In this document: piece after piece, positions 385-31,748 of the stretch
Layout of the letters: the number at the start of each line of letters is the position of its first letter
Numbering within the stretch: position 1 is the stretch's first letter
Translations under genes and position numbers: made by a program
Notes under the pieces: generated by a model
Database searches by the model: none
What the model was told of the DNA's origin: nothing
What the model saw: only the letters and a program-made list of their open reading frames with translations
Origin: Candidatus Parcubacteria bacterium
GTDB taxonomy: Bacteria; Patescibacteriota; Minisyncoccia; Phycocordibacterales; Zambryskibacteraceae
Direction: 5' to 3'
Length of the DNA: 34,616 nt
NCBI GenBank assembly: GCA_019658995.1
Contig: JAIFWN010000001.1
Span: 86,852 to 121,467 of the forward strand

Positions 385-412
385 TTGACAAATATCTTAG
401 TTGTGATATACT
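385..412 (+). promoter_or_regulatory. sigma70-type promoter of the small ORF/structured RNA unit
   Basis: TTGACA 385-390, 16 nt spacer, TGa-TATACT 404-412. Confidence 0.7.
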
Positions 413-475
413 TATATGTGCAGTAGGGGACTTGATAGTGCCCCGTGCATGTACCTTCAACCATCGAGGTTGTCC

Positions 476-568
476 ATGCGACCGACAAGTACCGCTCCGC
501 CCAGCCGTGCCAGTACCAGTCTGAATCGCCGCTTGTACACCACGTTCGCCGCGCGCGGCACCGGCTGA
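476..568 (+). CDS. putative 30-aa peptide MRPTSTAPPSRASTSLNRRLYTTFAARGTG (below ORF-track cutoff)
   Basis: GAGGT SD at 466-470, ATG at 476 and TGA at 566-568, downstream of a consensus promoter. Confidence 0.45.
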   Translation: MRPTSTAPPSRASTSLNRRLYTTFAARGTG

Positions 569-708
569 CCTCGGCAGGTCGGCTCGACGCTCCACGCAGT
601 ACCGGCGGGTCGCGGGTCATCGAAACTGTCTGTTCGGATTGTTAATATCCGTCGATGCCCGCGGCTCCGCCGCATCCACTTTCACTCATCTGTCCGATAC
701 CGGACGGA
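564..708 (+). ncRNA. candidate structured RNA / long structured 3' region
   Basis: Hairpin 564-583; long bulged stem 603-623/652-672 with internal hairpin 635-651; hairpin 689-708. Confidence 0.4.
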
Positions 709-714
709 ATCATC

Positions 715-741
715 CCCTGACCTTGGTCAGGGTTTCATTTT
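715..741 (+). terminator. intrinsic terminator
   Basis: CCCTGACC/GGTCAGGG inverted repeat followed by TTTCATTTT. Confidence 0.7.
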
Positions 742-790
742 ATACACATCAGAAAGGCTTCTATGGCGACTGTTACCCATGTAATTATCA

Positions 791-819
791 TTGACTCAGC
801 ACGTCTTTCGTGCTAGGAA
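791..819 (+). promoter_or_regulatory. putative promoter with palindromic spacer
   Basis: TTGACT-N17-TAGGAA with a TG extension. AGCACG-N5-CGTGCT inverted repeat at 798-814. AAGGAG SD before ATG 886. Confidence 0.45.
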
Positions 820-885
820 GAGGCCAGAAACCTCTTTTGATCTTCGTCAAGAAACCACTTCACTGAACGACAAAGGAGCCCAACC

Positions 886-2229
886 ATGCGGACAAGGTTG
901 TACGTATGTGCGGCCTTGGCCGCAGTCTTCACTCTGGCGGGTGCGTGCGATAGATCGCCCACCCAGCCGAACATCACCATCAGGATCGGTATCAACAACG
1001 GCAACGACGGCGGTGTCTTAGGCACCGGCGGCGGTAACACTCCCTCCGGCTGCTCGATCAATTTGACCATCAGCGGAGTCGCTGTGGGACCGAGCGGCAG
1101 CTCGACGTGGCAGTTTGGCGAGCGGCGCAACTACACCGGCTCGTTCACTACCAACCCGTTTAGCTGTGCCAAGCCGGAGGACTTCATGTTCACGTCTTCG
1201 GCGCCCGGTATCATCGGGATCGATGCTGTGACAGGTCAGGCCACCGCAGATAACACACCCGGACAGGCCACTCTCTGTTTTGTTTACAGGCCTGATCCTC
1301 AGAACATCCGGGCCTGCACACCGCCGCAGACGGTAGTCGGACCGACCGGCGGTAACCCCTCAATCAGCCCTATCGGTCAAATCTCGACCGGGAACCTCTG
1401 TCAGAGAATCTTCAACGGGGCGATAAACCCGCCTGGAACAGCGGGTACTTGGTCGATTGAAGGTTCAACCTTAGTTACGGTGAATCCGACGACCGGTGCC
1501 GGATCAGTTACGCAGTCAGGCGTGTCCGGATCGGCGACGCTTGTCTTCACAATGACGAACGGCACGCGAATCACAACGCCGCTCACATTCGTGGCTACGG
1601 ACTGTACCGCTCCGCCTCCGACGGCTACCTTTACCTTCAGCTTGCCGAGCATCTGCCTGAGCACGATTGCAGGTTCGCCGACGACAGCGGACTTCACCAT
1701 CACGGTGATAGTGCCCGGGATCAGTAATCCGGGTGTGAACATCACTTCGTCGAATACGTCGGTGGTAACGGTTGTGCCGGTCGGTTCCAGCACTGGTACG
1801 ACTACGACCTGGAGAGTCACTCTGTCCGGACCGGGCAATGCCAATCTCACGGCGTCGGTCCTTGGTATAAGCGGTGTTGGTTCATTGCCCGTGCAGGTGC
1901 TTACTACGGCCTGCCCTGGCGGTGGAAATTCGATCAGTTACTCTCCTCCGGGAGGTACGGTCGGAACCACAGTGCCAAACCCCGGTACACTCACTTCTGT
2001 TTGTATCCTGGGTACCGGTACGATCACCTGCAATCCGTTCTACACATCGAACCATCCGGAGCTCATCGACGTCTTCGGTAACGGAGTGACGCCTATCAAC
2101 GGCTTCAACTTCAGAACCGGCATGACGGCGACGATCACCAGAATAGCGAACACAACCATCGATGTGGAGATCTGCGTGCAGTGGTCTGTGACGGAAGTCA
2201 GCCCAAGATTCTGTCGCAATTGGCGATGA
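886..2229 (+). CDS. Thr/Gly/Cys-rich putative lipoprotein with about 4 Ig-like (Big_2-like) repeats
   Basis: Signal peptide ending LAGA-C21. Repeated strands FTSSAPGII, WSIEGSTLVTV, ITSSNTSVVTV and YTSNHPELIDV resemble the Big_2 'W/F-x-SS-x-P-x-V-x-V' motif. Confidence 0.65.
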   Translation: MRTRLYVCAALAAVFTLAGACDRSPTQPNITIRIGINNGNDGGVLGTGGGNTPSGCSINLTISGVAVGPSGSSTWQFGERRNYTGSFTTNPFSCAKPEDFMFTSSAPGIIGIDAVTGQATADNTPGQATLCFVYRPDPQNIRACTPPQTVVGPTGGNPSISPIGQISTGNLCQRIFNGAINPPGTAGTWSIEGSTLVTVNPTTGAGSVTQSGVSGSATLVFTMTNGTRITTPLTFVATDCTAPPPTATFTFSLPSICLSTIAGSPTTADFTITVIVPGISNPGVNITSSNTSVVTVVPVGSSTGTTTTWRVTLSGPGNANLTASVLGISGVGSLPVQVLTTACPGGGNSISYSPPGGTVGTTVPNPGTLTSVCILGTGTITCNPFYTSNHPELIDVFGNGVTPINGFNFRTGMTATITRIANTTIDVEICVQWSVTEVSPRFCRNWR

Positions 2230-2237
2230 TCCCTAAC

Positions 2238-2273
2238 CCCCGGAGATAGCAATATCTCTGGGGATTTTTATTT
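2238..2273 (+). terminator. intrinsic terminator
   Basis: CCCCGGAGATA-GCAA-TATCTCTGGGG followed by a T-rich tail. Confidence 0.75.
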
Positions 2274-2289
2274 CTGATATACTTTCCGC

Positions 2290-3312
2290 ATGTCTGTGCT
2301 TTACCGCAAATATAGGCCCAGAAGCTGGAAGGATGTGACCGGCCAGGAGGCGGTTGTCAGCGTCTTAAGCAATGAAATCAACCTCGGTTCTGTCGCCCAT
2401 GCCTATCTCTTTGCGGGCTCCAGGGGGACGGGCAAGACCTCCGTGGCCAGGATATTCGCCGCCGAATTGGGTACGTCTCCGAACGATATTTATGAGATAG
2501 ATGCGGCATCCAATACCAGCGTCGAGGATATCCGGTCGCTCAATGAGGCTGTGCACACCTTGCCATTCGAATCAAAATACAAAGTTTACATTCTCGACGA
2601 GGCCCACATGCTCAGCAAGAGTGCCTGGAACGCATTTCTCAAAACTCTGGAGGAGCCTCCTGCGCATGTCATATTCATTCTTGCTACGACCGAACTGGAA
2701 AAAGTTCCTGAGACGGTACAGAGCCGGTGTCAGGCATTCGTCTTCAAGCGTCCGAGTCAGAAGATTCTCAGAGATTTCGCCATTCATATATCCAAAGAAG
2801 AGGGAAGAGGACTCGAGCCGGAAGCGGCTGAGCTGGTCTCCCTACTGGGTGACGGTTCCTTCCGTGATACGCATGGAATCCTTGAGAAAGTATTTTCGAG
2901 CACCAAGGAAAAAAATATAAGCAGGGAAGAAGTCGAAAGGGTCACCGGCGCTCCGAGAGCCGGACTAGTGCGAGATGTCCTGGCCTCGATAGTCGGACAA
3001 GATATCGAGAAGGGAATGAAGGCTATCGCAGAAGCCAGGAGGGATAATACCGATATTAAGATCTTCGCGCGCCTCATCCTGGAGCATTTGCGATACCTCT
3101 TCCTCATTCGTCTCAAAGCCGGGCTCGATGATTATATATTGGAAGAAACTTCGGAAGATGATTTCAAATTTCTCAAAGATCTGGCACAGAAGGCTGATAA
3201 GCATTTAACCGCCGAGGTGCTGGTGAAATTCATCGAGGCCGCTGACTCCGCGGGGCGTTCAAGCATTCCGGAACTTTCCCTCGAGATTGCTCTGACCGAG
3301 AGTATTCAATAA
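2290..3312 (+). CDS. dnaX: DNA polymerase III subunit gamma/tau (short form)
   Basis: LYRKYRP, Walker A GSRGTGKTS, EIDAASN, ILDEAHML, LKTLEEPP and SRC motifs. Confidence 0.97.
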   Translation: MSVLYRKYRPRSWKDVTGQEAVVSVLSNEINLGSVAHAYLFAGSRGTGKTSVARIFAAELGTSPNDIYEIDAASNTSVEDIRSLNEAVHTLPFESKYKVYILDEAHMLSKSAWNAFLKTLEEPPAHVIFILATTELEKVPETVQSRCQAFVFKRPSQKILRDFAIHISKEEGRGLEPEAAELVSLLGDGSFRDTHGILEKVFSSTKEKNISREEVERVTGAPRAGLVRDVLASIVGQDIEKGMKAIAEARRDNTDIKIFARLILEHLRYLFLIRLKAGLDDYILEETSEDDFKFLKDLAQKADKHLTAEVLVKFIEAADSAGRSSIPELSLEIALTESIQ

Positions 3313-3363
3313 ATATAGAAATTGATTAATGGTGTTTTAGCCTGACTGGAGTATGCTTAAGTC

Positions 3364-3819
3364 ATGGCACACAAACTTACATTATTCCTACTCCGCATTT
3401 CTTTGGGATGGTACATGTTTTACGCCGGGATTACCAAAGTGATCGATCCGGCATGGTCTGCCGAAGGGTATCTTAAGGGAGCAAAATTACTGCCCGGATT
3501 CTATATGTGGTTAACATCGCCAGGGATTATGCCGGTAGTAAATTTCATAAATGAATGGGGTCTGACGCTTCTTGGGGTTTCGCTTATCTTGGGAATCTTT
3601 ATCAAATACTCCGCACCTCTCGGAGTTTTGCTTATGCTCCTCTACTACATCCCCCTAGGTATTATCCACCCAGACGCCCACTCGCTCATTGTAGATCAGC
3701 ATGTGGTATTCGGACTTCTTATGATCTATTTTACTCTTGTGGGAGCTGGTAAGGTATGGGGTCTCGACGGCCGTATTGGTAAATTAAAAAATCCTTGGCT
3801 TTCTCAGAAAGGGGAATAG
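3364..3819 (+). CDS. DoxX-family membrane protein
   Basis: LLRISLGW..FYAGITK, four hydrophobic segments and GAGKVWGLDG. Confidence 0.85.
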   Translation: MAHKLTLFLLRISLGWYMFYAGITKVIDPAWSAEGYLKGAKLLPGFYMWLTSPGIMPVVNFINEWGLTLLGVSLILGIFIKYSAPLGVLLMLLYYIPLGIIHPDAHSLIVDQHVVFGLLMIYFTLVGAGKVWGLDGRIGKLKNPWLSQKGE

Positions 3820-3937
3820 AAACGATTCAAAAACTAGTCTGATATATCGATAATAATCTGACTTAGCGGTTCTTGGTCTTTTTTTGGTCTCTAGAACTTG
3901 TGCCCAAGGTGGCTGGCTGTCTGGTACGAAGTTGGAA

Positions 3938-4423: not shown

Positions 4424-4477
4424 GTATTTAGACTATCACAACGTTTTACCTAGGCAATTCTTGCTTAACCTTGCTAG

Positions 4478-4548: not shown

Positions 4549-4607
4549 ATAAACTTAAAACTATCAAATTCTGACATAATTGAATAGCACGCTTCGTCTT
4601 AAAGCCA

Positions 4608-5270: not shown

Positions 5271-5281
5271 AAGATAATCAT

Positions 5282-6271: not shown

Positions 6272-6300
6272 TTGACAATATCATTTCAATAGTATATAGT
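6272..6300 (+). promoter_or_regulatory. sigma70 promoter of the DEAD-box helicase
   Basis: TTGACA-N17-TATAGT. The leader has a hairpin and a GAGGT SD. Confidence 0.75.
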
Positions 6301-6349
6301 TGAGCACTAACTGAGTCACTCCTTCGGTTTAGTCGACGAGGTTACATAT

Positions 6350-7546
6350 ATGCCATTCAATCATCGCGGCCATAGGCCAGCAGGTGGTCGCCCGTTCCAC
6401 GGGAGATCGCAAAACTTCAATAGAGGCGGCAAACGTCCGCAGAAATCCTTCTCCGACATCTCTAAGTTCGTCAACAAGGCGGTTATTACGGAAGAGGTCG
6501 AGCAATTCATACCCGAACACAGGTTTGCCGACTTTGCCGTGAACGATCTTCTGAAGAAGAATATAGAAGCCAAGGGCTACGTTAACCCGACTCCCATACA
6601 GGACCGGGCTATACCGCATATACTGCGAGGTGAGGACATCGTGGGCATAGCCAATACCGGCACGGGGAAGACCGCCGCCTTCCTCATTCCACTTATAGAT
6701 AAACTCCTGAGGAATCCCGAAGAGAAGGTGCTTATCATCGTACCCACGCGCGAGCTTGCCTTCCAGATCGACGAAGAACTCAGGGCTTTTGCCAAGGGTT
6801 CGGGACTCTTTTCCGTCATATGTATCGGCGGGGCGGGCATAGGCAAGCAGATAACGGAGCTTCGTCAGAGGCATCACTTCGTTATCGGTACTCCAGGACG
6901 TCTCAAGGATCATATAGAGAGCAAGCGGCTTGATCTCTCCAAGTTCAATACGGTTGTTCTGGATGAGGCTGACCGCATGCTTGATATGGGATTCATCAAC
7001 GACATGCGCTACATGATGGATAAGATGCCGAAGTTCAGGCACACCCTCTTCTTCTCCGCCACCCTTTCTCCGGAAATAGAGAGACTCATCCATGCTTTTC
7101 TCAAATCTCCGGCCCGGATCTCGGTCAAGACCCGCGACACTTCGAAGAATATTGATCAGGATGTCATCCGCATACAGGGAAAGACCAAAGCCCAGGTGCT
7201 TCTCGACCTTTTGATACAGAAGGATTTCGACAAGGTACTCGTCTTTACCCGTACCAAGCACGGAGCGGACAAGCTTACCAAGTTCCTGCGTGACAGCGGC
7301 ATAAGCGCCGAGGCCATCCACGGCAACAAACAGCAATCAGCTCGGCAGAAAGCCCTGAACGATTTCAAGGCCAATAAAACTCAGGCTCTTATTGCTACGG
7401 ATGTGGCCGCCCGCGGCCTCGACATTGCCGACGTATCACACGTCATCAACTTCGATCTTCCCGCAACTTATGAGGACTACGTACACCGCATCGGCCGCAC
7501 CGGTAGGGCAGAGAAGAAAGGCAAAGCTCTGACTTTTATAGAATAA
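6350..7546 (+). CDS. DEAD-box RNA helicase (RhlE-like)
   Basis: Q motif PTPIQ, GTGKT, PTREL, TPGR, DEAD, SAT, ARGLD and HRIGRTGR. Confidence 0.97.
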   Translation: MPFNHRGHRPAGGRPFHGRSQNFNRGGKRPQKSFSDISKFVNKAVITEEVEQFIPEHRFADFAVNDLLKKNIEAKGYVNPTPIQDRAIPHILRGEDIVGIANTGTGKTAAFLIPLIDKLLRNPEEKVLIIVPTRELAFQIDEELRAFAKGSGLFSVICIGGAGIGKQITELRQRHHFVIGTPGRLKDHIESKRLDLSKFNTVVLDEADRMLDMGFINDMRYMMDKMPKFRHTLFFSATLSPEIERLIHAFLKSPARISVKTRDTSKNIDQDVIRIQGKTKAQVLLDLLIQKDFDKVLVFTRTKHGADKLTKFLRDSGISAEAIHGNKQQSARQKALNDFKANKTQALIATDVAARGLDIADVSHVINFDLPATYEDYVHRIGRTGRAEKKGKALTFIE

Positions 7547-13590: not shown

Positions 13591-14217
13591 ATGCTCGAGC
13601 ACCACGCCTACTTGCTCTTAGGCGAGCGTCCGGAGGCTGATGCTTATATTGAAAATGTTTTCGAATCAGCCGGGATCAGACCGGCAGGAAATCCGGATGT
13701 ATTCTTCCTCGAACTTGATGTTTTCGGCGTAAACGATGCCCGCGCCTTGAGTGATCGGGCCATAGAGAAGGCCTTTGGAGATAAGAAGGTGTTTGTCATA
13801 CATGCCGCCAAGTTCACTGCCGAAGCCCAGAACGCGCTTCTCAAAACTTTTGAAGATCCGGTGCCTAATACGCACTTCTTCATTACGGCACGTGAGCACA
13901 GCGTTTTTCTGCCTACGCTTCTTTCTCGCATGCATAGTATTCGCGTCGGAGGAGAAGCGGAAGAGAGCAACGAAGTAAAAAAGTTTTTGAAGAAAACTCC
14001 CAAACAGCGTATAGACTTTGCCAAGAGGTTTGCCGATGAAAAGGAAGAAAGAGGTGCCGCCGCCCTCGCCGAATTCCTCGACTCTCTCCTCATCGAGCTT
14101 CGTGCAAGCGGTGCTCCGCTAGAAATGCAAAAGAAAATATTAAACATGCGCAAATACGCCCGTGACTCGGCCGCCATGCCGCGCCTCATCCTCGAGCACC
14201 TTGCATTATTTTTATAA
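13591..14217 (+). CDS. holB: DNA polymerase III delta-prime-like subunit (short)
   Basis: HHAYLL, NPD, EAQNALLKTFEDP and LPTLLSR. Confidence 0.8.
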   Translation: MLEHHAYLLLGERPEADAYIENVFESAGIRPAGNPDVFFLELDVFGVNDARALSDRAIEKAFGDKKVFVIHAAKFTAEAQNALLKTFEDPVPNTHFFITAREHSVFLPTLLSRMHSIRVGGEAEESNEVKKFLKKTPKQRIDFAKRFADEKEERGAAALAEFLDSLLIELRASGAPLEMQKKILNMRKYARDSAAMPRLILEHLALFL

Positions 14218-14251
14218 AAGAAAGCCGTTCGCGACGAATAGCGAACGGCTT
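14215..14251 (-). terminator. terminator hairpin between convergent genes
   Basis: AAGCCGTTCGC-N8-GCGAACGGCTT with a U-tract on the minus strand. Confidence 0.75.
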
Positions 14252-14263
14252 GGTACGACAGCG

Positions 14264-14695
14264 TTACATCTCAGCTGCCTTGAGATATGGAAGGACATTT
14301 GTGAGACCGGGCATCTTTCGCAACATACCTTCGGCGAGCTCGTTTCGATACTCGTATACGGTCTGCATGTCTTCGACTGAGAAGCTGCCACCCCACCGGT
14401 AGAGCATCTTATTGCCCAACCAGCAGAATGCGCACAGTTTCTTTGCACCCATATCTTTGTTACCCATACTCTCGCTGATGTAAACTCTCCACTCAAGAAC
14501 ATCCGGAGTATGTTCCTCAGTCTTGTTGGAGAACACAGTCAGGCAACCATCGTGTTCCCTCACGAACTTGAGGGCCTCGGGCCCGGCTCGACCGCACATG
14601 AGGCTAGCCAGTTTATCGACGGTCGCCTTCATCATGTCGATATTCTGCGCGCCGGCCAGAATTCGGTCACCGAGCCCCATCATTTCTTTTTCCAT
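14264..14695 (-). CDS. orphan hypothetical protein (143 aa)
   Basis: GGAGGA SD before ATG 14695. It has its own promoter and terminator; the longer ORF-track start runs through the promoter. Confidence 0.7.
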   Translation of the reverse strand: MEKEMMGLGDRILAGAQNIDMMKATVDKLASLMCGRAGPEALKFVREHDGCLTVFSNKTEEHTPDVLEWRVYISESMGNKDMGAKKLCAFCWLGNKMLYRWGGSFSVEDMQTVYEYRNELAEGMLRKMPGLTNVLPYLKAAEM

Positions 14696-14773
14696 TTGAT
14701 CCTCCTCCCATCTCTGGGAGACTTCATGTGAAGTGGCATCTCTGCCGTTGGACTGCCAAAGAACTACTTCTAC

Positions 14774-14803
14774 ATAATACCATACTATGTAGCTATTTGT
14801 CAA
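14774..14803 (-). promoter_or_regulatory. sigma70 promoter
   Basis: TTGACA-N18-TATTAT with a TG extension, overlapped by a CTACATA/TATGTAG inverted repeat (14770-14792). Confidence 0.7.
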
Positions 14804-19810: not shown

Positions 19811-21515
19811 CATAATCCGTAAATTCAAAAAGAGTCTTGACCACAGCAGCCGGGAAATAAATCCGGAAGACATCTTTATCGACTCTGCCAATCTGCCCGG
19901 CCTTAACCGCGACCGTTTCGAAGGCCGCATGGAGAGGCCGATTGGGGAAAGGACATTCTTCTTCTTCAAAATTTTCCTGGCCATAGTGATTGTATCCCTA
20001 GCGGGTAAGCTCTGGGGTCTCCAGGTCAAAGACGGCAAGGTCTACGCGGAGGTAAGCGAAAACAATCGTCTCGACCGCACCATAGTCTTTGCCGACCGCG
20101 GAGTAATATATGACAGGAACAAACTGCCGCTTGCCGAAAACAGCATAAAGCCCGGGGAGGAGGACTTCGCCGGACGTAAGTATGCTCCCATACAGGGTCT
20201 CGCGGCGGTACTCGGTTATGTGAAGTTTCCGCAGAAGGACTCGAGCGGCCGCTACTACGATGAGTCATACCACGGCCAGGCTGGGGTGGAAAAGATTTAT
20301 GATTATCAGCTTAGCGGCGTGAACGGTTCAAAGTTAATTGAGTCCGATGCCCGGGGCGAGATCACGTCGGAGTCGATAGTCGAGTCTCCAAGGAAGGGAC
20401 TCGATCTTACTCTCGCCATCGATGCCCGCCTGACGGAAGAACTTTATAAAGCCATATCTGCCGCCGCTAAACTGAGAGGATTTACCGGGGGTGCGGCGGT
20501 CATAATGGATACAGAGACCGGAGAGATACTCGCCCTCACAAGCTATCCGGAGTATGACCCGAGTGTAGTAACAGCCGGAACAGATAAGGAAGAAATTAAG
20601 AGACTCCTGAATGATAAAAGTAAGCCCTTCCTCAACCGCGCAGTATCCGGCCTATACACTCCCGGCTCTATTGTGAAGCCGATAGTCGCTCTCGGAGCGC
20701 TTTCCGAAGATGTGATCGATCCCGGCAAGAGCATACTCTCGACCGGCGCGCTCACTCTCCCGAATCCTTATGACCCGGCACATCCTTCGGTCTTTAAGGA
20801 CTGGAAAGCTCACGGCTGGGTCAATATGCGTGAGGCTTTGGCGGTATCGAGCGATGTTTATTTCTACGAAGTCGGAGGCGGATTCCAAAACCAGCCAGGA
20901 CTTGGTATTACCAAGCTCGATAAATATTTCTCACTCTTCGGCATGACGGAGAAGACGGGTATAGATCTTCCCGCCGAAGGCGAAGGATACATTGCCAACC
21001 CGGAGTGGAAGGAGAGAACCTTTCCCGAAGATCCTGTCTGGCGCATCGGCAATACTTATCACACAGCCATAGGACAGTACGGCACGCAGGTCACGCCGGT
21101 AGCGGCGGCACGGTGGACCGCCGCATTGGCCAATGGCGGTACTCTCCTAGTACCCACAGTAGTGAAGGGCGGACACTCTGAAGATAAAAGGGTTTTGAGG
21201 AAAATCGATTTGCCGGAAGGCGACTGGGAGATAGTTCGCGAGGGCATGTACCAGAGTGTCCACGGCGGGGTAGCAAGCGGACTCTCCACTCCGGAGGTAC
21301 AAATTGCCGCTAAGACCGGTACGGCCGAGCTCGGTGTCCATAAGGAGTTTGTAAACTCGTGGGTTACTGGCTTCTTTCCTTACAAAAACCCCCGTTACGC
21401 TTTTGCTTTGATAATGGAGAAGGGTCCGGTAGCAAACTTAGTAGGCGCCACCTCGGTGATGCGTCAGGTTATAGACTGGATGACGCTAAACACTCCGGAG
21501 TATTTGCTTAATTGA
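19803..21515 (+). CDS. mrdA: penicillin-binding protein 2
   Basis: RGVIYDRN, PGSIVK (SxxK), SSD and KTGTAE; mre context. Confidence 0.92.
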   Translation: MHNIIRKFKKSLDHSSREINPEDIFIDSANLPGLNRDRFEGRMERPIGERTFFFFKIFLAIVIVSLAGKLWGLQVKDGKVYAEVSENNRLDRTIVFADRGVIYDRNKLPLAENSIKPGEEDFAGRKYAPIQGLAAVLGYVKFPQKDSSGRYYDESYHGQAGVEKIYDYQLSGVNGSKLIESDARGEITSESIVESPRKGLDLTLAIDARLTEELYKAISAAAKLRGFTGGAAVIMDTETGEILALTSYPEYDPSVVTAGTDKEEIKRLLNDKSKPFLNRAVSGLYTPGSIVKPIVALGALSEDVIDPGKSILSTGALTLPNPYDPAHPSVFKDWKAHGWVNMREALAVSSDVYFYEVGGGFQNQPGLGITKLDKYFSLFGMTEKTGIDLPAEGEGYIANPEWKERTFPEDPVWRIGNTYHTAIGQYGTQVTPVAAARWTAALANGGTLLVPTVVKGGHSEDKRVLRKIDLPEGDWEIVREGMYQSVHGGVASGLSTPEVQIAAKTGTAELGVHKEFVNSWVTGFFPYKNPRYAFALIMEKGPVANLVGATSVMRQVIDWMTLNTPEYLLN

Positions 21516-21540
21516 CAACTCTGGATTTTTAAGGTAATAA
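21512..21540 (+). promoter_or_regulatory. sigma70 promoter overlapping the mrdA stop
   Basis: TTGACA-N17-TAATAA. Confidence 0.6.
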
Positions 21541-21626
21541 GAGCTTATTCCGTAGGGGCGAAGATCGTCCTTTCTTGAGAGAAGAACTCTCATGGCATCC
21601 AGCCGGAATGGCTCTTTGGGTGACTT

Positions 21627-22025
21627 ATGGATACTCCTACGAAGTTGTTCCTCGGAATCGTTGCGTTTGTGATTGCTGTAAATCTTGTCGAATGGGTTGT
21701 TCAAAAGGTTCTCAAGGCGAAGCGTGCGGAAGCTTTTGTGGGTCTCTTCATGACTGAGGAAGTAGTCATGGGGAAACTTGCCCGGCTCGCCGCTGAGCTC
21801 GACAGCATCTTCCGTGAACAAATCAGGGTTCAGTCTGAAGGTCTTGATCTTGGCGTCGAAGTCTGGGAGGACATGAATCGCAGAATGCAGGATATCATCT
21901 GCAAAAATAAGGCCGAGTTCTGGCAGGCAGTCGAGCTTGCGCGAACATTTGGTTTTCTCAAAGAAAACCCGATAGCTTCATATAGAGATGCTCTGAAGCC
22001 TCAAAAGAAGGACAGCTCTACCTAA
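21627..22025 (+). CDS. orphan protein with N-terminal TM helix and helical domain
   Basis: 132-aa ORF with a GGTGA SD-like element and its own promoter and terminator. Confidence 0.7.
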   Translation: MDTPTKLFLGIVAFVIAVNLVEWVVQKVLKAKRAEAFVGLFMTEEVVMGKLARLAAELDSIFREQIRVQSEGLDLGVEVWEDMNRRMQDIICKNKAEFWQAVELARTFGFLKENPIASYRDALKPQKKDSST

Positions 22026-22043
22026 TAACGGTGGAGCTTTTTT
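22014..22043 (+). terminator. intrinsic terminator with the stop codon in its loop
   Basis: AGCTCTACC-TAATAAC-GGTGGAGCT-TTTTT. Confidence 0.75.
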
Positions 22044-22103
22044 ATTGTGAATAGTTGAGGTTGATAAAGGCAGCTTTTCCTGGTATCATTTTGCCATTAA
22101 TTT

Positions 22104-23929: not shown

Positions 23930-23959
23930 TTGACATTTGACTAATCTGTGTGATATAAT
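23930..23959 (+). promoter_or_regulatory. sigma70 promoter
   Basis: TTGACA-N18-TATAAT with a TG extension. AGGAGG SD at 23979-23984. Confidence 0.8.
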
Positions 23960-23989
23960 ATAGGAAGAAACCCTCGGCAGGAGGCAGAT

Positions 23990-24325
23990 TTGGAAACATT
24001 CGTTCGGTGGGAGGACATTCGCGAGGCGGCTCAGGATCGACGTAAAAAACTCGGTCTTCGGGAGACAGCCAAGGAAATGTATCTCTCGTACGAGGGGCTG
24101 CAAAGCTTTCTCGACGGACGGAGGTCCCAAGAGTCAACGAGAGCCAATCTCGTAGCTTGGTACCTCTGGCACAAGAACATTCGCGTATCGAATGAAGATG
24201 TCACGATCGCCAAGGGAATTCTCGTGCGGCATGCATTCGAGCTTCGCAAACCGCGAGCCCGAGAACGCCGCATGGGAGCAATCGTTGGCGACCTTTTCCA
24301 CCAATTGCTGATGTTGGACGATTGA
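23990..24325 (+). CDS. putative Cro/C1-like helix-turn-helix protein (TTG start)
   Basis: GLRETAKEMYLSYEGLQSFLDG HTH pattern; perfect SD. Confidence 0.65.
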   Translation: METFVRWEDIREAAQDRRKKLGLRETAKEMYLSYEGLQSFLDGRRSQESTRANLVAWYLWHKNIRVSNEDVTIAKGILVRHAFELRKPRARERRMGAIVGDLFHQLLMLDD

Positions 24326-24349
24326 ACTTTCACAACAGGAGAGTGGAGC

Positions 24350-25012
24350 ATGAGACGCACCGTTATTATGCTTGCGCTCTGTGCTCCGTTTGCACTTGGA
24401 GCGCAGGAGTGGGAACAGGGCTTGTACTATCAGGCCCACTTCGACAAAGTCGGCCGTAGCTTCGAGCAATCTGGCCGGCTGTTGTATACGCAGGGCTACA
24501 TCGGGAAGGGTAAGAAAGGTCTGTGGGATTTCATTTCCGCGGATACCGGATACTTTTCCTTCGCGCTCGGCGGGTACTACACGCCAGCCAAGTACTTCGA
24601 TGCAGGCGTCGCTGTCGGGCTTGAGAACATTCTCACGGAGCAGGAAGCTTTGTCGGACGTCTGGAAGATTTACGCGCGTTATGCGGCGTATGTCCGTGCC
24701 GGTACTCTCAATACGGATAAGATCTTCCTGGCTCTCTACTACGAGAGCGGTACGTCGACTCCGCACTGGGTGCGCAGGTTCGATGCCGGCTGGTATCAGG
24801 CCGAGGCATCCTTCTCGGTCGGGAGATTTCTCTTCGGAGGCTTCTCTCAGACGGAGATCGGCACCGGCCCGCGGGTTCAGATCATGCTCATTGAGCGCGC
24901 TGGGCTGAAATTCCAGGCCTGGGGCTCGCCCAGCATGTACAAACTGGAAGAAAAGAAATGGGTCCATCGAGGCGTAGCTGGCGTGAACCTAATTCTTCAC
25001 AATCCCGAGTAA
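24350..25012 (+). CDS. secreted aromatic beta-strand-rich protein, probable beta-barrel
   Basis: Signal peptide ending ALG-AQ; alternating hydrophobic, Tyr- and Gly-rich strands; AGGAG/GGAG SD. Confidence 0.6.
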   Translation: MRRTVIMLALCAPFALGAQEWEQGLYYQAHFDKVGRSFEQSGRLLYTQGYIGKGKKGLWDFISADTGYFSFALGGYYTPAKYFDAGVAVGLENILTEQEALSDVWKIYARYAAYVRAGTLNTDKIFLALYYESGTSTPHWVRRFDAGWYQAEASFSVGRFLFGGFSQTEIGTGPRVQIMLIERAGLKFQAWGSPSMYKLEEKKWVHRGVAGVNLILHNPE

Positions 25013-25016
25013 CACA

Positions 25017-25052
25017 GTCCCGTATCCACCGAAAGGTGGTACGGGGCTTTTT
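25017..25052 (+). terminator. intrinsic terminator (copy 1 of a related pair)
   Basis: GTCCCGTATCCACC-GAAA-GGTGGTACGGGGC-TTTTT. Confidence 0.8.
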
Positions 25053-25060
25053 CTATGATA

Positions 25061-25088
25061 TTGACAAGTTAATTTAATATGATATGAA
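25061..25088 (+). promoter_or_regulatory. sigma70 promoter
   Basis: TTGACA-N16-TATGAA with a TG extension. GGAG SD before ATG 25133. Confidence 0.55.
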
Positions 25089-25132
25089 TACAAGCAGTCA
25101 GCCGTTCGTTTCAAAATTTCTCGGAGAAAATA

Positions 25133-25627
25133 ATGAAGCCAACTGTCTATGCCGTGATTGGCCTTGTCATGTATGGCCTTCAAAATGCCATCATCGACAT
25201 CAAGCTGAAGGGGTACTCGACCGTCAGCCTTCTCGTCGGGTTCTATCTGATTCTTCTGCCGCTCGGCCTTGGTTTGTTCCTCTATCAGAAGTACGTGGGA
25301 CAGCCACTGGTCATTCCATCCGGAAGTGCGATGATGACGGTGAGCGCTGTTGCGATCATGTTCTTCATTGCAGACTTCTTCTATATTGGTGCTTATACTA
25401 ACGGCGGCAATGCGATTGCGATTACAATCCTTGCCGCTCTGGTACCGGTAGTGGTGGCTCTGGTGAAGTTCGGCGTGATCCGGGAAGTCCCGACACCATA
25501 TCATTTCGGCGGATTTGTTCTTGCTCTTATGTCCGTGATGTTGGTCGCCTACGGCAACTCAAAGAAGCCTATAGAGTTAGGGACAGGAACTGCCATCGCA
25601 GTCGAAGAGCCGACCCTGGCCAAATAA
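25133..25627 (+). CDS. EamA/DMT-like single-repeat membrane protein
   Basis: 5 TM segments, AYTNGG, ILAALVPVVVAL and E...YHFGGFVLAL. Confidence 0.7.
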   Translation: MKPTVYAVIGLVMYGLQNAIIDIKLKGYSTVSLLVGFYLILLPLGLGLFLYQKYVGQPLVIPSGSAMMTVSAVAIMFFIADFFYIGAYTNGGNAIAITILAALVPVVVALVKFGVIREVPTPYHFGGFVLALMSVMLVAYGNSKKPIELGTGTAIAVEEPTLAK

Positions 25628-25630
25628 TTC

Positions 25631-25666
25631 GCTCCGTACCATCGTAAGGTGGTACGGAGCTTTTTT
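25631..25666 (+). terminator. intrinsic terminator (copy 2 of a related pair)
   Basis: GCTCCGTACCATC-GTAA-GGTGGTACGGAGC-TTTTTT. Confidence 0.85.
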
Positions 25667-25694
25667 ATACATAAAACAAGCTATTATTTTGTCC

Positions 25695-25723
25695 TTGACA
25701 AATAGGATAGATATTGGTATAAT
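25695..25723 (+). promoter_or_regulatory. perfect-consensus sigma70 promoter
   Basis: TTGACA-N17-TATAAT with a TG extension. AGGAG SD before ATG 25772. Confidence 0.85.
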
Positions 25724-25771
25724 AGAAAAGGTTAGGTAGCACATTCACAACTTCTACATAGGAGCTCGGAG

Positions 25772-26368
25772 ATGTCGTCAGTCAAGGCGGTACTCTCGGT
25801 TGCAGCCGGCTTGATCTTCATCTTCGCGTTCTTCCCTTATATCAAGGCGATCGTGAAGAGGCAGACATGCCCGCGCAAGGCAACATGGTTCGTGTGGGCA
25901 CTTGGCGACATCATTATCCTCGCGGGTATGATCGACAAGGGCACCATCAGCGGTCAGCTGGTCGGAGCGGTTATCGGTGCGACTACGACCTTCATCCTCT
26001 CGGTCAAACTCGGTGAACCCGGATGGAATACGAGAGACAGGGTTTGTGTCACGCTGTCGCTTCTCTCAATTGGGCTTTGGCTCTACTTCGGTGAGTCGAA
26101 TCTCGGAATCGGTTTCAGCCTCTTGGCCCTCTGCATTGCGGCCTGGCCGACCTACGTGTCGGCTTGGGAAAAGCCGGAGAATGAGGACAAGAACGCCTGG
26201 ATCTGGTTCAACGTCTCAAGCGTCATCGCTGTGCTTGCGATCCCGCGGATGACATTCGCGGATGCTGCTCCGCCGATCGTCTTCATGGCGATCGACGGAG
26301 TGATGATCTATCTACTCTTCCTCCGTCCTAAGTGGGATAGAGTGAAGACAGAAATACTAGGCTGGTAG
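25772..26368 (+). CDS. multi-pass membrane protein with two PQ-loop-like repeats
   Basis: FPYIKAIVK..T.P...TWFVW and AWPTYVSAWEKPENED..AW; about 7 TM segments. Confidence 0.7.
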   Translation: MSSVKAVLSVAAGLIFIFAFFPYIKAIVKRQTCPRKATWFVWALGDIIILAGMIDKGTISGQLVGAVIGATTTFILSVKLGEPGWNTRDRVCVTLSLLSIGLWLYFGESNLGIGFSLLALCIAAWPTYVSAWEKPENEDKNAWIWFNVSSVIAVLAIPRMTFADAAPPIVFMAIDGVMIYLLFLRPKWDRVKTEILGW

Positions 26369-26384
26369 AAGTTGTTTCAAACAG

Positions 26385-26412
26385 AAGGCCGTCGCGCAAG
26401 CGCCGGCCTTTT
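26385..26412 (+). terminator. intrinsic terminator
   Basis: AAGGCCG-T-CGC-GCAA-GCG-C-CGGCCTT-TT. Confidence 0.7.
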
Positions 26413-26430
26413 CCATACTTTAAGAACAAA

Positions 26431-26497
26431 TGTGGATAACTCGTCTAGTAGTGTGGCAGGTAGTGGGATACACTATCTATCAAGTGGGAGAAAGTGG
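26431..26497 (+). promoter_or_regulatory. DnaA box plus MraZ-binding GTGG repeats
   Basis: TGTGGATAA (reverse complement TTATCCACA) at 26431-26439. GTGG at 26453, 26463, 26484 and 26494 (about 10-bp period). Confidence 0.75.
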
Positions 26498-26952: not shown

Positions 26953-26957
26953 ACGAC

Positions 26958-27851: not shown

Positions 27852-28161
27852 AATAAGCACATTTTCATACGAAGCAAGAGTCCGGGTATTCTGGACGTTG
27901 TCTGTAGTCGCAATAGCAGCTCTTTCACTGTATTTCTACGCGGTTTTAGCAACCATACATCACACGGTAGCCAGGGCGACGCTCGAAAACCAAAGTCTGG
28001 TTCTATCCGCACGAGTGAGTGAGCTCGAGTTTGAGAGCATAGCTCTCAAGAACACGGTAAACCTGGATGTAGCCATTAGGGAAGGCTTCACCGAGGTCAA
28101 GAATCCTCTATATGTCTCGAGATCCCGAGGTTCTCTCACGCTCAACACCGGAGGTCGCTAA
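27841..28161 (+). CDS. ftsL: FtsL-like cell division protein
   Basis: TM helix plus coiled coil, between rsmH and ftsI. Confidence 0.6.
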   Translation: MKTRISTFSYEARVRVFWTLSVVAIAALSLYFYAVLATIHHTVARATLENQSLVLSARVSELEFESIALKNTVNLDVAIREGFTEVKNPLYVSRSRGSLTLNTGGR

Positions 28162-28181
28162 TAGTGCGGTAAAATATATAA

Positions 28182-29933
28182 ATGAATTCACCAGGCCGAA
28201 TGCGTCTCCTCTCTATCGGGGTCATGCTCTTTGCATTACTCCTTATAGCCAAGCTCTATGAAGTACAGGTTCTGAAGGGGGAGATATACAGGGCCAAGGC
28301 CGATCATCAGTATGTGGAGGGAGGGAACTACTTCGACCGCGGCTCCATCTTCTTTACCGCCAAGGGCGGCTCGCATGTGCCGGCCGCGAGTGTCAAGACC
28401 GGCTTCATGCTCACTATCGACCCACAGCTTTTCAGGAAGATGGAGGCCGATAAGGAAGACATATATAAGCGCATCAATGCTGTTACTCCCATAGATAAAC
28501 TTGTCTGGGACACCAAGGCTTCTAAAGATTATGATCCGTACGAAGAGCTGGCCAAGCGTCTTTCCTCGGACGTAGCCAAGGGTATCCAGGCGCTCGGCAT
28601 TCCGGGCGTATCAGTATTTAAGGAAGACTGGCGTGTTTACCCGGGCGGCCCCATGGCCGCTCACGCAGTAGGCTTTGTCGGCTACGGCGGACCGGACGGT
28701 ACGGAGCTTGCCGGCCGCTACGGCCTCGAGCGATATTATGAAAATGTTTTAAAGCGGAGCGGCAACAAGGCTTTCGTCAACTTCTTTGCGGAGGTATTCT
28801 CCGATATTAAGAAGACCCTGACTCCGGGCGAGAGTCTCGAGGGGGATATTGTCACCACCATAGAACCATCGGTCGAGAGCATACTCGAGGAGGAACTCGA
28901 AAGGCTGCAGGGAAGATATCTTTCTGAATTTTCCGGCGGTATTATCATCGACCCTAAGACCGGAGAAATCTATGCCATGGCGCTTTCGCCGTCCTTCGAT
29001 CCGAATTCGCCCCAGTCCGCAGACTCTTCAGAAATATTCAGCAACAAGCTCGTTGAGGACCGGTACGAAATGGGATCGATCGTGAAGGCTCTTACGATGG
29101 CCGCCGGCCTGGACTCCGGCGCGGTATCGCGTAAGACCGTATACAACGACCCCGGCTGCCAGACTCTCGACAAAAAGACATTCTGCAACTATGACGGAGT
29201 GTCTCATGGTAATAATTTGCCAATGCAGGTGGTACTGAACAAGTCGCTCAACACCGGAGCGGCCTTCGTGGTTTCTAAAATGGGCAATGGCACTTTCCGC
29301 AAGTACATGCTCGATTACGGGCTGGGCGAGCTTACCGGTATCGATCTCCCCAACGAGGGTAAATCGCTCATTGCCAATCTATCGAGTCCGCGAGATCTTG
29401 AGTACGCCCAGGCCTCCTTCGGCCAGGGCGTAGCCTTCACACCGGTGCAGATGGTAAGAGCGCTCTCAGTTCTCGCCAACGGCGGTTATCTCATCACCCC
29501 TCATCTGGTGAAGAAAATCGAATATGAAATAGGCACCAGCAAAGAGATAAAACCGGAGAGGGGCGACCAGGTATTCAAGAAAGGCACTTCCGAGGAAATC
29601 TCACGCATGCTTACGGAGGTGGTCGATACAGCTCTCAAGGATGGCCATGTGCGCCTGTCAAACTACTCGGTAGCGGCGAAGACCGGCACCGCCCAGATTG
29701 CCAATCCGGCCGGGGGAGGGTATTATCCTGACCAATACTTACACTCCTTCTTCGGCTACTTCCCGAGCTATGATCCGCGCTTTCTCATCTTCCTCTATAC
29801 TTATTATCCGAAAGGTGTACAGTATGCATCCGAAACTCTTACCGACAGCTTCATTAATCTCACCAAGTTCCTCATCAGCTACTACAACATTGCTCCCGAC
29901 AGGCAAGCTCCCCCGCCTCCGATCGTCAAATAA
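28182..29933 (+). CDS. ftsI: septal peptidoglycan transpeptidase PBP3
   Basis: DRGSIF, RVYP, MGSIVK, SLN and KTGTAQ; dcw context. Confidence 0.9.
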   Translation: MNSPGRMRLLSIGVMLFALLLIAKLYEVQVLKGEIYRAKADHQYVEGGNYFDRGSIFFTAKGGSHVPAASVKTGFMLTIDPQLFRKMEADKEDIYKRINAVTPIDKLVWDTKASKDYDPYEELAKRLSSDVAKGIQALGIPGVSVFKEDWRVYPGGPMAAHAVGFVGYGGPDGTELAGRYGLERYYENVLKRSGNKAFVNFFAEVFSDIKKTLTPGESLEGDIVTTIEPSVESILEEELERLQGRYLSEFSGGIIIDPKTGEIYAMALSPSFDPNSPQSADSSEIFSNKLVEDRYEMGSIVKALTMAAGLDSGAVSRKTVYNDPGCQTLDKKTFCNYDGVSHGNNLPMQVVLNKSLNTGAAFVVSKMGNGTFRKYMLDYGLGELTGIDLPNEGKSLIANLSSPRDLEYAQASFGQGVAFTPVQMVRALSVLANGGYLITPHLVKKIEYEIGTSKEIKPERGDQVFKKGTSEEISRMLTEVVDTALKDGHVRLSNYSVAAKTGTAQIANPAGGGYYPDQYLHSFFGYFPSYDPRFLIFLYTYYPKGVQYASETLTDSFINLTKFLISYYNIAPDRQAPPPPIVK

Positions 29934-29936
29934 AGT

Positions 29937-31253
29937 ATGAGAGATATTTTCAGAAGAATAGTGGTCGTAATCCTGCAGTGGGAGGCCAAAGCGGTGTTGA
30001 AAAGGTACAAGCCTTCCATTATCGGCATTACCGGCACGGTTGGAAAAACATCTACCAAGGAAGCGGTTTATACAGCTCTGTCACAATTCGAAAGCGTCAG
30101 AAGAAGCCCCAAGAGTTTCAACAGCGACTTCGGCGTGCCTCTGGCTATCCTCGGACAGAAGGGGCCGGCTGATGTGACGGATATGGCTGGATGGCTGAAG
30201 GTTTTCCTCGAAGGTCTGATTGTACTTATCTTCCCCCACCATTATCCGAGATGGCTTATTCTTGAAATAGGTACGGACAGGCCGGGTGATATACGCGAGC
30301 TGACACAATGGATCAAGCCGGATGTGGTCATCGTTACCAAACTTGCCGAGGTTCCGGTGCATGTGGAGGCCTTCGGTTCTCCGGAGGACCTCTTTGCCGA
30401 GAAGGCGCACCTGGTGAAGGCTCTTAAGCCCGGCGGTACGCTTATACTCAATGCCGATGACAGCGATGTAGTAGCTTTCAGAAATTATTCGGAAGAGAGG
30501 GTGATCCTCTTCGGCAATTCGGCCGGCTCGGATGTCAGCGCCGCCAACTACAAAATTATTTATGATGATAAGAAGATTCCCAGAGGTGTACAGTTCGAAG
30601 TATTTACCGCCGGCCATGAATCCGAACCTGTAACCGTCGCCCTTTCCGGTACTCTCGGCGAGAGCCATGCCTATCACGTCCTGGCGGCGCTCTCGGTTAT
30701 AAAATTGCTTAACGAAAATATGGCCGCCGCCGCCAAGAGCTTTTCCCGCGAGAGCCCTCCGCCGGGCCGGGTGAGGATCATCGAGGGCCTCAAAGATTCC
30801 ATCATCATTGACGACACCTACAACTCTTCACCGGTAGCCGTGGAAGAAGCTCTGAAGATCCTGAAATCGGTCAGGTTGCCCGTGAGAGGAGGAAGGCGGA
30901 TCGCCATACTCGGCGACATGCTCGAACTCGGGCGTTACACCATAGATGCGCACAAAAATATCGGCAAGAAAGCTGCCAAGATAGCAGACTTGCTAGCCGT
31001 AGTCGGCATCCGCTCGCGCGCCACGGTTGAAGAAGCTCGGAGTGCCGGTCTCGGCGAATCGGAAGTGTTCCATTTTGACGACTCTATAGAAGCCGGGAAG
31101 TTCATGAAGGATCTGATAAAAAAAGGAGATATAATCTTAGTCAAAGGCTCCCAAGGCATGCGCATGGAGCGCGTAGTCGAAGAGCTTATGGCACACCCGG
31201 AAGACAAAGAAAAACTCCTGGTCCGCCAGGATGAGGAGTGGAGGAACAGATAG
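29937..31253 (+). CDS. murF: UDP-MurNAc-tripeptide--D-Ala-D-Ala ligase
   Basis: GITGTVGKTSTKE, IIDDTYNSSP, LGDMLELG and LVKGS. Confidence 0.95.
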   Translation: MRDIFRRIVVVILQWEAKAVLKRYKPSIIGITGTVGKTSTKEAVYTALSQFESVRRSPKSFNSDFGVPLAILGQKGPADVTDMAGWLKVFLEGLIVLIFPHHYPRWLILEIGTDRPGDIRELTQWIKPDVVIVTKLAEVPVHVEAFGSPEDLFAEKAHLVKALKPGGTLILNADDSDVVAFRNYSEERVILFGNSAGSDVSAANYKIIYDDKKIPRGVQFEVFTAGHESEPVTVALSGTLGESHAYHVLAALSVIKLLNENMAAAAKSFSRESPPPGRVRIIEGLKDSIIIDDTYNSSPVAVEEALKILKSVRLPVRGGRRIAILGDMLELGRYTIDAHKNIGKKAAKIADLLAVVGIRSRATVEEARSAGLGESEVFHFDDSIEAGKFMKDLIKKGDIILVKGSQGMRMERVVEELMAHPEDKEKLLVRQDEEWRNR

Positions 31254-31306
31254 TTGATTTTTGGTTTCAGAAATGGTGATATAGGCAAAGACAGAGAGGA
31301 GAGACC

Positions 31307-31726
31307 GTGACAATAGAGAAAAGCGGCAGGGAACTGCTCTTGGAAGCCGTGAGGAAGAAGGACGGCTCAGGAGTCTTCTATATCTACGGAAGCAACGAAG
31401 AGGAGAAGCGGAGGATCGTGAAGTTTGTCAGTCTCGAGGCCCCGGATGAGATGTGCCGAGATTTCAATTTCGCCGAGAGAGATGCTCGGGAGTTAAACGG
31501 CGAGCTCTTCGCCGAGCTTCTGTCCCAGCCGATTTATCTCGCAGGCCGCCGGGTAGTCATAATCCAGTGTGCCGATAAGCTCTCGGACGAGGCTCGTCAT
31601 GCTTGGGCGCGATTTCCTGAAGTTGCGATTGAAGAGGTATTGCTCCTCTTGGTCAATACTCCCCATACTGATCGTGACGAATCCCTCGCCAGGCTAGAGG
31701 GAATTGTTCTCGTAGAGTGCAAGTAA
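31307..31726 (+). CDS. stand-alone N-terminal domain of DNA polymerase III delta (HolA-like), 139 aa
   Basis: VFYIYGSNE, RDFNF, LLSQPIYLAGRRVVIIQCADKL match the HolA domain-I pattern; AGGAG SD and GTG start. Confidence 0.65.
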   Translation: MTIEKSGRELLLEAVRKKDGSGVFYIYGSNEEEKRRIVKFVSLEAPDEMCRDFNFAERDARELNGELFAELLSQPIYLAGRRVVIIQCADKLSDEARHAWARFPEVAIEEVLLLLVNTPHTDRDESLARLEGIVLVECK

Positions 31727-31748
31727 TCCCGCTTTGGCGGGATTTTTA
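31725..31748. terminator. terminator between convergent genes
   Basis: AATCCCGC-TTTG-GCGGGATT-TTT. Confidence 0.75.

Follow-up and report, generated by a model that had tools for sequence, protein, structure and literature searches.

Eight intergenic units (U1 to U8) lie between core genes in a 34,616-nucleotide stretch of the genome of a Candidatus Parcubacteria bacterium (assembly GCA_019658995.1, contig JAIFWN010000001.1, positions 86,852 to 121,467; G000:C6:86852-121467), referred to below as the window. Seven of them are self-contained genes, and most of these carry a classical Shine–Dalgarno (SD) element, although the 16S rRNA of the organism lacks the complementary anti-SD. Throughout the genome (545,292 bp in 17 contigs, 96% complete) such elements are associated with genes that are not conserved among congeners. 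An original prediction had regarded the units as orphan cassettes that may be derived from, or directed at, a host. They are better viewed, with some confidence, as flexible-genome units of the gene pool of the Candidate Phyla Radiation (CPR) that would be expressed by the CPR cell itself. The placement in Patescibacteria/Parcubacteria is supported by the names of homologs.

In the proposed mechanism, a 0.55-Mb Parcubacteria-type genome without uL1 and without a 16S anti-SD would express its conserved genes in two ways, neither of which uses an SD, namely from leaderless mRNAs, with an extended -10 element ending 6 nt before the start and usually no -35 element, or by coupling inside operons. 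Each unit would be a transcription unit of its own, with an ordinary sigma-70-type -35/-10 promoter, a 30-100-nt leader, an intrinsic terminator and, 5-8 nt ahead of the start codon, a GGAGG-type element of the classical kind. Such units would recur at a small number of intergenic hot spots that separate collinear core operons, and gain, loss, replacement or fast divergence would all take place within the CPR gene pool.

SD elements on non-conserved genes in a genome without an anti-SD

Genome-wide statistics rely on a simple gene finder written for this analysis (dicodon log-odds with greedy selection), which called 574 genes covering 88% of the genome, recovered nearly all genes of the window and yielded 563 usable genes. 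Orphans were defined by the absence of a tblastn match (E<1e-5, coverage at least 0.5) in three congener genomes, G007, G016 and G003 (the latter included minus 19.5 kb), and account for 110 of the 563 genes. An SD of at least 5 nt is strongly associated with this fraction, since 20 of the 34 genes that carry one are orphans vs 90 of 529 others (odds ratio 7.0, p 2e-7); with at least 4 nt, the proportions are 41/83 with and 69/480 without. The same holds for terminators (orphans among 39/78 terminator-bearing genes vs 71/485) and for -35-plus-leader promoters (14/32 vs 96/531), while leaderless genes are depleted in orphans (18/155 vs 92/408). When only genes with at least 40 nt of upstream sequence are considered, an SD of at least 4 nt precedes 36 of 94 orphans and 24 of 179 conserved genes.

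The association depends on the position of the motif. In orphans an SD core occurs at -18 to -3 in 46 of 92 cases vs 16 of 92 at -58 to -43, with GGAG/GAGG peaking sharply at -12 to -8 (51 matches there), while conserved genes show no enrichment (45/316 vs 61/316). Four mock motifs used in place of the SD were found in 9-17% of orphans, a ‘reverse’ mock motif having been excluded as a control because it shares the GGAGG core. With starts chosen by coding score alone, an SD is still seen in 28/95 orphans vs 43/336 conserved genes. The orphan motifs are classical (AGGAGG, GGAGGT), and the association is replicated in congeners G016 (49/107 orphans vs 35/328) and G007 (27/97 vs 34/286), in line with the predicted genome-wide, dispersed class tied to non-conserved genes. 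Orphans are in fact both dispersed and clustered, with 45 of 111 lying between conserved genes and 42 orphan–orphan adjacencies vs 20.8 expected. SD-bearing orphans, with a median GC content of 53.7%, are richer in GC than conserved genes (50.8%, p 8e-8) and than the remaining orphans (50.5%). Ten of them were sampled and include a reverse transcriptase (RVT_1; C9:56871-57860) and a secreted subtilase (Peptidase_S8; C9:66742-67650), both species-specific and preceded by strong SDs.

The expression signals of the remaining genes are of another kind, as had been proposed. SD cores are not in excess, preceding 13.5% of starts vs 15.4% of decoys, and the description of these genes as leaderless or coupled, without an SD, is valid genome-wide. 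By the calls made here, ~27% of genes are predicted to be leaderless, their TGnTAnnnT finishing 6 nt short of the ATG. Of 370 unambiguous starts, 73 have a TANNNT beginning exactly at -12 (background ~8 per position); a G occupies -14 in 52 of these 73, most having TG two bases upstream, and the same fixed peak appears in G007 (136) and G016 (111). A leaderless score of at least 4 is reached by 24% of the 370 starts vs 0.5% of 1932 internal-ATG decoys, and by 13 of 42 genes in the window. DnaX (2268..3312, + strand), where TGATATACT ends 6-7 nt before the ATG, is a typical example, and GNAT, RRF, hyp100, FtsI, hyp111 and LOG share this arrangement. Leaderless promoters mostly have no -35 element, only ~4-6 of 71 intergenic -35/-10 pairs being at leaderless distance.

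However, the promoter is not what sets the units apart, contrary to the distinct promoter grammar that had been put forward. A TTGAC-type -35 with a long leader and without an SD is found on ten conserved genes (those for an RRM protein, PheS, NusA, S8, NusG, S19, EF-Tu, L10, S13 and RpoB); this promoter type is thus native to the organism, and only the SD and the terminator mark the accessory set. Conserved genes also end in intrinsic terminators. Except for the pair of U5b and U6, terminators are diverse, which rules them out as a repeat family, and GNRA loops account for 17 of 39 tetraloops.

It had been cautioned that the whole arrangement may merely mark highly expressed genes, a view that could draw on strong consensus promoters of several units and on the SD-like elements of two conserved genes, that for the housekeeping protein MreB and that for the DEAD-box helicase (6272..7546, + strand; TTGACA-17-TATAGT, 49-nt leader, GAGGT). 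This caveat is improbable because classic highly expressed genes (EF-Tu, RpoB, NusA, NusG, S8, S13, S19 and L10) combine a -35 and a leader with no SD. Moreover, the SD tracks non-conservation rather than codon typicality, the coding score per codon being 0.17 in SD-bearing orphans vs 0.30 in conserved genes.

The 16S rRNA 3′ terminus was located by pattern search after an Rfam search had returned no 16S in this genome. The final ~50 nt of the 16S gene stand at the beginning of contig C1, where C1:1-60 reads ...GCTGCTCGTGGAGTAATTCAATTAGAAA, which gives a tail, GGAGUAAUUCAAUUAGAAA, that is also present in four congeners; in the Rfam alignment of G007, GGAGUAAUUCAAUU stands opposite GGAUCACCUCCUUU. 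CCUCC is missing from the tail of this genome, and 30 of 30 relatives of the order lack CCTCC within 40 nt of helix 45. No match to uL1 (PF00687) was obtained in this 96% complete genome, while the control was detected in 14 of 14 genomes. Downstream of the 16S gene come a spacer of ~200 nt, in which some blocks are conserved, and an intrinsic terminator (C1:1-260 and four further loci; five genomes of the genus), so that 16S appears unlinked from 23S.

The SD-like element might nevertheless be functional in this anti-SD-less lineage through another reader, either a ribosomal contact or a trans-acting factor. GGAGG would then start or regulate the translation of leadered, mostly accessory genes, which would refine the interpretation favoured here rather than replace it; this is a serious possibility, though one still short of probable. 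No complementary rRNA partner emerged. A new ribosome-binding site (RBS) complementary to the altered 16S tail was rejected, as its complement occurs 85 times vs 80, 64 and 77 for controls, of 316. An internal anti-SD in helix 26 was likewise rejected, the CCUCC of G007 being paired with GGGGGG in a stem and not conserved (CCCTCTG in most of 14 relatives). A scan for a separate RNA with CACCTCC-type words gave scattered matches, mostly inside or antisense to genes. For CsrA as a reader of GGA there was only a sub-threshold match inside the S1 protein, and no bS21 gene was found in the search for an SD reader. The lack of SD enrichment on core genes also speaks against a working SD.

Anatomy and cargo of the units

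Taken over the whole window, consensus promoters are not in excess of shuffled sequences (19 vs 17.0, standard deviation 4.4, in one count; 22 vs 16.4, standard deviation 3.7, in the other), nor are terminators (12 vs 15.3; 22 vs 17.2). Near-perfect promoters do exceed them, and what distinguishes these is their location. All five sites of the window with at least 11/12 matches are intergenic and each is oriented toward a gene, and genome-wide 71 -35/-10 pairs occur in 62,325 intergenic bases vs 50 in 482,967 coding bases, a density ~11 times higher. U3, U5 and U7 are textbook units, each with a hairpin and T-run, a GGAGG-type element and a promoter that matches at 11-12/12 positions and has the TG. 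The -10 is non-canonical in U2, weak in U4 and poor in U6. GGAGG-type SDs are present in U2, U3, U5a, U5b, U6, U7 and U8. The cargo consists mostly of envelope proteins, together with small cytoplasmic proteins of no known family.

By the promoters assigned here, the leader measures ~70 nt in U3 (14214..14803, - strand) and ~85 nt in U4, the latter without an SD. In U3, TTGACA-18-TATTAT (14803-14774; 11/12 plus TG) is followed by GGAGGAGG (14708-14701), an open reading frame (ORF) of 143 aa (14695-14264) and a terminator (14251-14214); the start is ATG 14695 and not TTG 14821, which lies upstream of the promoter. U4 (21512..22046, + strand) has its TTGACA over the stop codon of PBP2, a weak -10 (TAATAA), an ORF of 132 aa (21627-22025) and a terminator (22014-22046), and encodes a membrane-anchored coiled coil with an N-terminal anchor.

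U5 (23930..25054, + strand) has a 12/12 promoter (23930-23959), two ORFs and a GAAA-loop terminator (25019-25054). U5a (23990-24325, + strand; 111 aa) has a TTG start at 23990 after AGGAGG, a weak coding score and no call by the gene finder, and the helix-turn-helix domain attributed to it gave no Pfam match. U5b (24350-25012, + strand; 220 aa) has an ATG at 24350 after AGGAGA. Its AlphaFold2 model (pLDDT 88.6, pTM 0.81) comprises a helix at 2-14, corresponding to a signal peptide, and 12 strands; Foldseek returned 46 PDB matches at E<=0.001, those listed being outer-membrane barrels with top TM scores of 0.44-0.50. U5b is thus confidently predicted to be a signal-peptide-bearing, 12-strand membrane beta-barrel. 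A sortase is encoded in the same genome alongside this predicted diderm-type barrel.

U6 and U7 follow in series. In U6 (25061..25668, + strand), TTGACA at 25061 lacks a convincing -10 at a spacing of 16-18 nt, GGAG (25123-25126) precedes an ORF of 164 aa (25133-25627), and a GTAA-loop terminator (25631-25668) closes the unit. The protein is probably a small DMT/EamA-type membrane protein, for which EamA scores 25.6 bits, below the cut-off of 28.2, and PF00892 is a precomputed annotation on 21 of 25 homologs, U6 itself excluded. U7 (25695..26414, + strand) has a 12/12 promoter (25695-25723), a 48-nt leader (25724-25771) with a conserved CACAACTTCT, AGGAG (25760-25764), an ORF of 198 aa (25772-26368) and a GCAA-loop terminator (26387-26414), and encodes a small polytopic membrane protein with an internal repeat. 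As to its function, a PDB profile search gave nothing below E 0.5 and the Atlas only unnamed clusters. U6 and U7 are probably small transporter-like membrane proteins.

U2 (791..2273, + strand) comprises TTGACT-17-TAGGAA (791-819), AAGGAG (873-878), an ORF of 447 aa (886-2229, ATG 886) and a GCAA-loop terminator (2238-2273), with 58% GC. With a signal peptide, a lipobox-like AGAC and an Ig-like repeat (Pfam Ig_NUP210_16th, 28.6 bits, cut-off 27), the product is a probable lipoprotein. U8 (31254..31750, + strand) has a weak promoter, GAGGAG (31296-31301), an ORF of 139 aa with a GTG start (31307-31726) and a terminator (31725-31750). Its protein gives a sub-threshold match to DNA_pol3_delta (PF06144; 14.8 bits vs a cut-off of 21, E 0.029); it looks like the N-terminal domain of the polymerase III delta subunit on its own, and its gene adjoins the dcw cluster. 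Two DnaX/HolB-like genes are also present in the window.

U1 (385..742, + strand) is the one unit in which no credible ORF could be found. Its promoter, TTGACA-16-TGATATACT at 385-412 (11/12 plus TG), and its hairpin with T-run (715-742) are in place; there is no SD and no ORF with coding potential, the longest + strand ORFs being 50-66 aa, and nothing was called by the gene finder. The ~300-nt GC-rich stretch (62%) folds at -128.5 vs -112.6 for shuffles (standard deviation 4.9, z -3.26). A known RNA was rejected, as Rfam at E<=1 matched only the tRNA, and no blastn match was obtained in 60 relatives. U1 may be a candidate non-coding transcript or small RNA, or else a leftover or transcribed edge of inserted DNA. 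A 17-nt direct repeat (15/17 identical; 397-413 and 2268-2284) brackets U1 and U2, one copy lying over the extended -10 of U1 and the other over the leaderless -10 of dnaX; the dnaX promoter could have been duplicated, or the copies could simply be two consensus boxes.

Synteny, homologs and origin of the units

The claim that the units are inserted between core genes is borne out by synteny with 10 congeners. The segment from LOG to MurE is collinear in 10/10 of them, and the gaps that hold U3, U4 and U5-U7 range from 11 to 2528 bp. At the site of U3, the gap between the holB-like gene and RRF is 11-50 bp in five of the ten and 320-2528 bp in the other five; at the site of U4, between PBP2 and GreA, it is 45-87 bp in eight and 621 and 830 bp in two. 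Syntenic orthologs of U2, U5b, U7 and U8 share 27-37% identity with the units, vs 55-88% for the flanking core, and carry a TTGAC[AT] promoter, a GGAG-type element and a terminator. Conservation at these loci, which by the original prediction would count against its proposal, is thus found for part of the set, the U7 family reaching 43 of 101 genomes of the order.

Orphan status, claimed for all units, holds only in part. U3 matched only itself among 5.8 billion protein clusters and gave no tblastn match at 10 congener loci. For U4 there are weak, non-syntenic matches in 2 of 21 congeners. For U2, 6 of 21 congeners have a homolog, at 32-38% identity, and 79 other relatives gave a single weak match; the syntenic match in G016, at 28% identity, keeps the TTGAC-17-TAGGAA promoter. 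U5b has 29 representatives at E<=0.001, with syntenic orthologs in G003, G021 and G011 that have the TTGAC[AT] promoter, GGAG and terminator. U8 has a single ortholog in 100 relatives, syntenic in G016 (37%) and preceded by AGGAG. U7 belongs to an order-wide, multi-copy family present in 14 of 21 congeners, with 61 homologs at 60-78% identity in Patescibacteria/Vogelbacteria metagenome-assembled genomes (MAGs). U6 has no match in 100 relatives and homologs of 52-67% identity, named DMT/EamA, in unclassified and Parcubacteria MAGs; one of their loci has AAGGAG, another a TTGACA promoter without an SD.

Several of these data bear on whether the SD-like element works. At 12 U7-family loci from several genera and families, with proteins ~30% identical, TTGACA is found in 9 and a correctly spaced SD-like motif in 10-11, all from an order without an anti-SD. 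The SD is kept in 4/4 U5b orthologs, and genome-wide an SD-like motif is retained at 14/33 starts of genes orthologous to leadered SD genes, vs 14/215 for non-SD genes. Motifs turn over while their position is kept, as in a case with GAGGT in four orthologs and AGGAG in this genome. In U7-family leaders (that of U7 and those of five further loci) a CACAACTTCT block lies 8-12 nt upstream of the SD-like element; its CUUC(U) can pair with the SD and does so in 3/6 minimum-energy folds, which suggests a regulated, SD-masking leader. Against a functional reading, RNAalifold on 6 U7 leaders gave no consensus fold, and recurrent exchange with SD-using lineages could mimic conservation.

Such exchange leads to the converse reading, in which the SD is a passenger. 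The units would be recent imports from SD-using donors (other CPR, bacteria or plasmids) whose RBS is neutral here, and apparent orthologs at the same site would be replacements by recombination in the conserved flanks. It agrees with the absence of the anti-SD throughout the order relatives sampled, with an SD signal that peaks in species-specific genes and is missing from core genes, with the GC-richer composition of SD-bearing orphans, and with motifs extending to GGAGGT, which match the canonical ACCUCC. The distribution of U6, missing from the relatives yet found in other MAGs with AAGGAG at one locus, points the same way, as do the reverse transcriptase and subtilase among the sampled orphans. 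U6 is moreover bracketed by a 27-nt direct repeat (89% identical; 25026-25052 and 25639-25665), which is a possible insertion scar and corresponds, in U5b as in U6, to the 3′ half of the terminator together with its T-run. However, the SD is kept in syntenic orthologs at 28-62% protein identity and at the ortholog starts counted above, no direct repeats were found around U3, U4 or U8, no mobility genes were detected in the window (Pfam scans of 44 ORFs), and for U3, without a homolog anywhere, no donor is visible. A passenger SD is held to be rather unlikely, if only a little less likely than a functional SD.

A third possibility is that the genes are host-directed and come to expression while the cell is attached to a host, or on host ribosomes once nucleic acid has been transferred. 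The 16S of a conventional host could pair with the SD, which that of the organism cannot, and the predicted barrel U5b is of diderm type in a genome with a sortase and without a detectable Omp85/BamA (PF01103, 0 matches; control detected in 7 diderm genomes). A host-directed action of U5b is possible as speculation. For the units as a whole this reading is nevertheless highly improbable. No transfer route is in evidence, the core operons of the organism itself use the same promoters, the genes for the DEAD-box helicase and MreB have the element as well, and a large part of the cargo is made up of polytopic membrane proteins like those of the cell itself. Nor was any host-derived cargo found: there are no homologs from a plausible host, all named ones being from CPR or unclassified MAGs. 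Phage origin was also rejected, PHROGs having given one weak match (U4, E 0.005) among 8 unit proteins.

The interpretation as flexible-genome units expressed by the CPR cell has to face several points that weigh against it. The 16S tail cannot pair with GGAGG, so that the SD may be inert here or read elsewhere. The set is heterogeneous, since U1 is not a gene, U4 has no SD and U6 has a poor promoter. In addition, orphan status depends on three congeners, gene calls and starts come from a crude finder, and signal-guided start choice inflates the SD counts of orphans (45% guided vs 29% unguided).

The core genes of the window, as mapped by Pfam on the 44 ORFs, include Dus, DnaX, the DEAD-box helicase, a sortase, an ECF sigma factor, RRF, an M50 protease, ProRS, MreBC, PBP2, GreA, a class II Asp/Asn-type tRNA synthetase, MraZ, MraW, FtsI and a Mur ligase, with the units and other small hypothetical proteins scattered among them. 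MraZ operators are series of TGGG-type repeats, and AAGTGGGA-type words are repeated upstream of mraZ at 26330-26344 and 26482-26496. At 32000-34616 the GC content falls to 42-43% over a gene for a KAP-family P-loop NTPase of 720+ aa, on the minus strand, which extends past the end of the window.

Known systems and significance

Leaderless-dominated genomes are known from Mycobacterium and Deinococcus and correspond to ‘group C’ of GeneMarkS-2. As in these, many genes have a -10 at a fixed short distance from the start and a leadered class exists beside them; here, however, leadered core genes and operon-internal genes lack an SD, which is concentrated on non-conserved genes. The units resemble flexible genomic islands and replacement hot spots in that the same sites hold different or highly diverged genes of atypical composition, but they are single-gene units of 0.5-1.5 kb, each with full expression signals and with no integrase or transposase nearby. 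Like integron cassettes, small single-gene units stand in series at one site (U5 to U7); unlike them, each has its own promoter and there is no attC-like repeat family. No integrase domain was found among the 44 window ORFs by general Pfam scans, which were not aimed at IntI and did not extend to the rest of the genome.

Loss of the anti-SD in uL1-less Parcubacteria, where SD helices are thought not to form, is described by Tsurumaki et al. 2022 (RNA 28:1041, PMC9297842). The present genome agrees in its 16S tail without CCUCC, its undetected uL1 and its small size, and differs by an SD-marked subset of genes, SD motifs on a gene subset not being reported in the relevant passages of the paper. 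According to Amin et al. 2018 (PLoS One 13:e0202767, PMC6107228), SDs are absent where the anti-SD is absent. The lack of a genome-wide SD signal (see the start and decoy frequencies above) fits this rule; the strong enrichment of classical SDs in the accessory fraction does not. No literature linking SD motifs to accessory genes in anti-SD-less CPR was found in a search that covered main texts and not supplements, which may list anti-SD states per lineage. As far as this search shows, a missing anti-SD together with SD-marked accessory genes is a new combination.

Anti-SD loss has hitherto been taken as loss of the SD mechanism, as stated by Amin et al. 2018 (PMC6107228), and Tsurumaki et al. 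2022 (PMC9297842) note that SD helices are thought not to form. Three genomes of a single genus show an SD that core genes have lost, yet which is prominent, well placed and partly conserved on variable genes. It may tentatively be proposed that an order without a 16S anti-SD keeps classical SDs under selection almost only on flexible genes, to be read by something other than the 16S tail or, at the extreme, by host ribosomes. A gene finder that is trained on only one model of the start will put starts in the wrong place in genomes of this kind. If the SD works, there would be an unrecognised way of reading GGAGG and a second, dedicated channel through which accessory and envelope genes are initiated or controlled. 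An SD without function would instead serve as a sequence tag of genes brought into CPR genomes and as a clock for the survival of imported signals.

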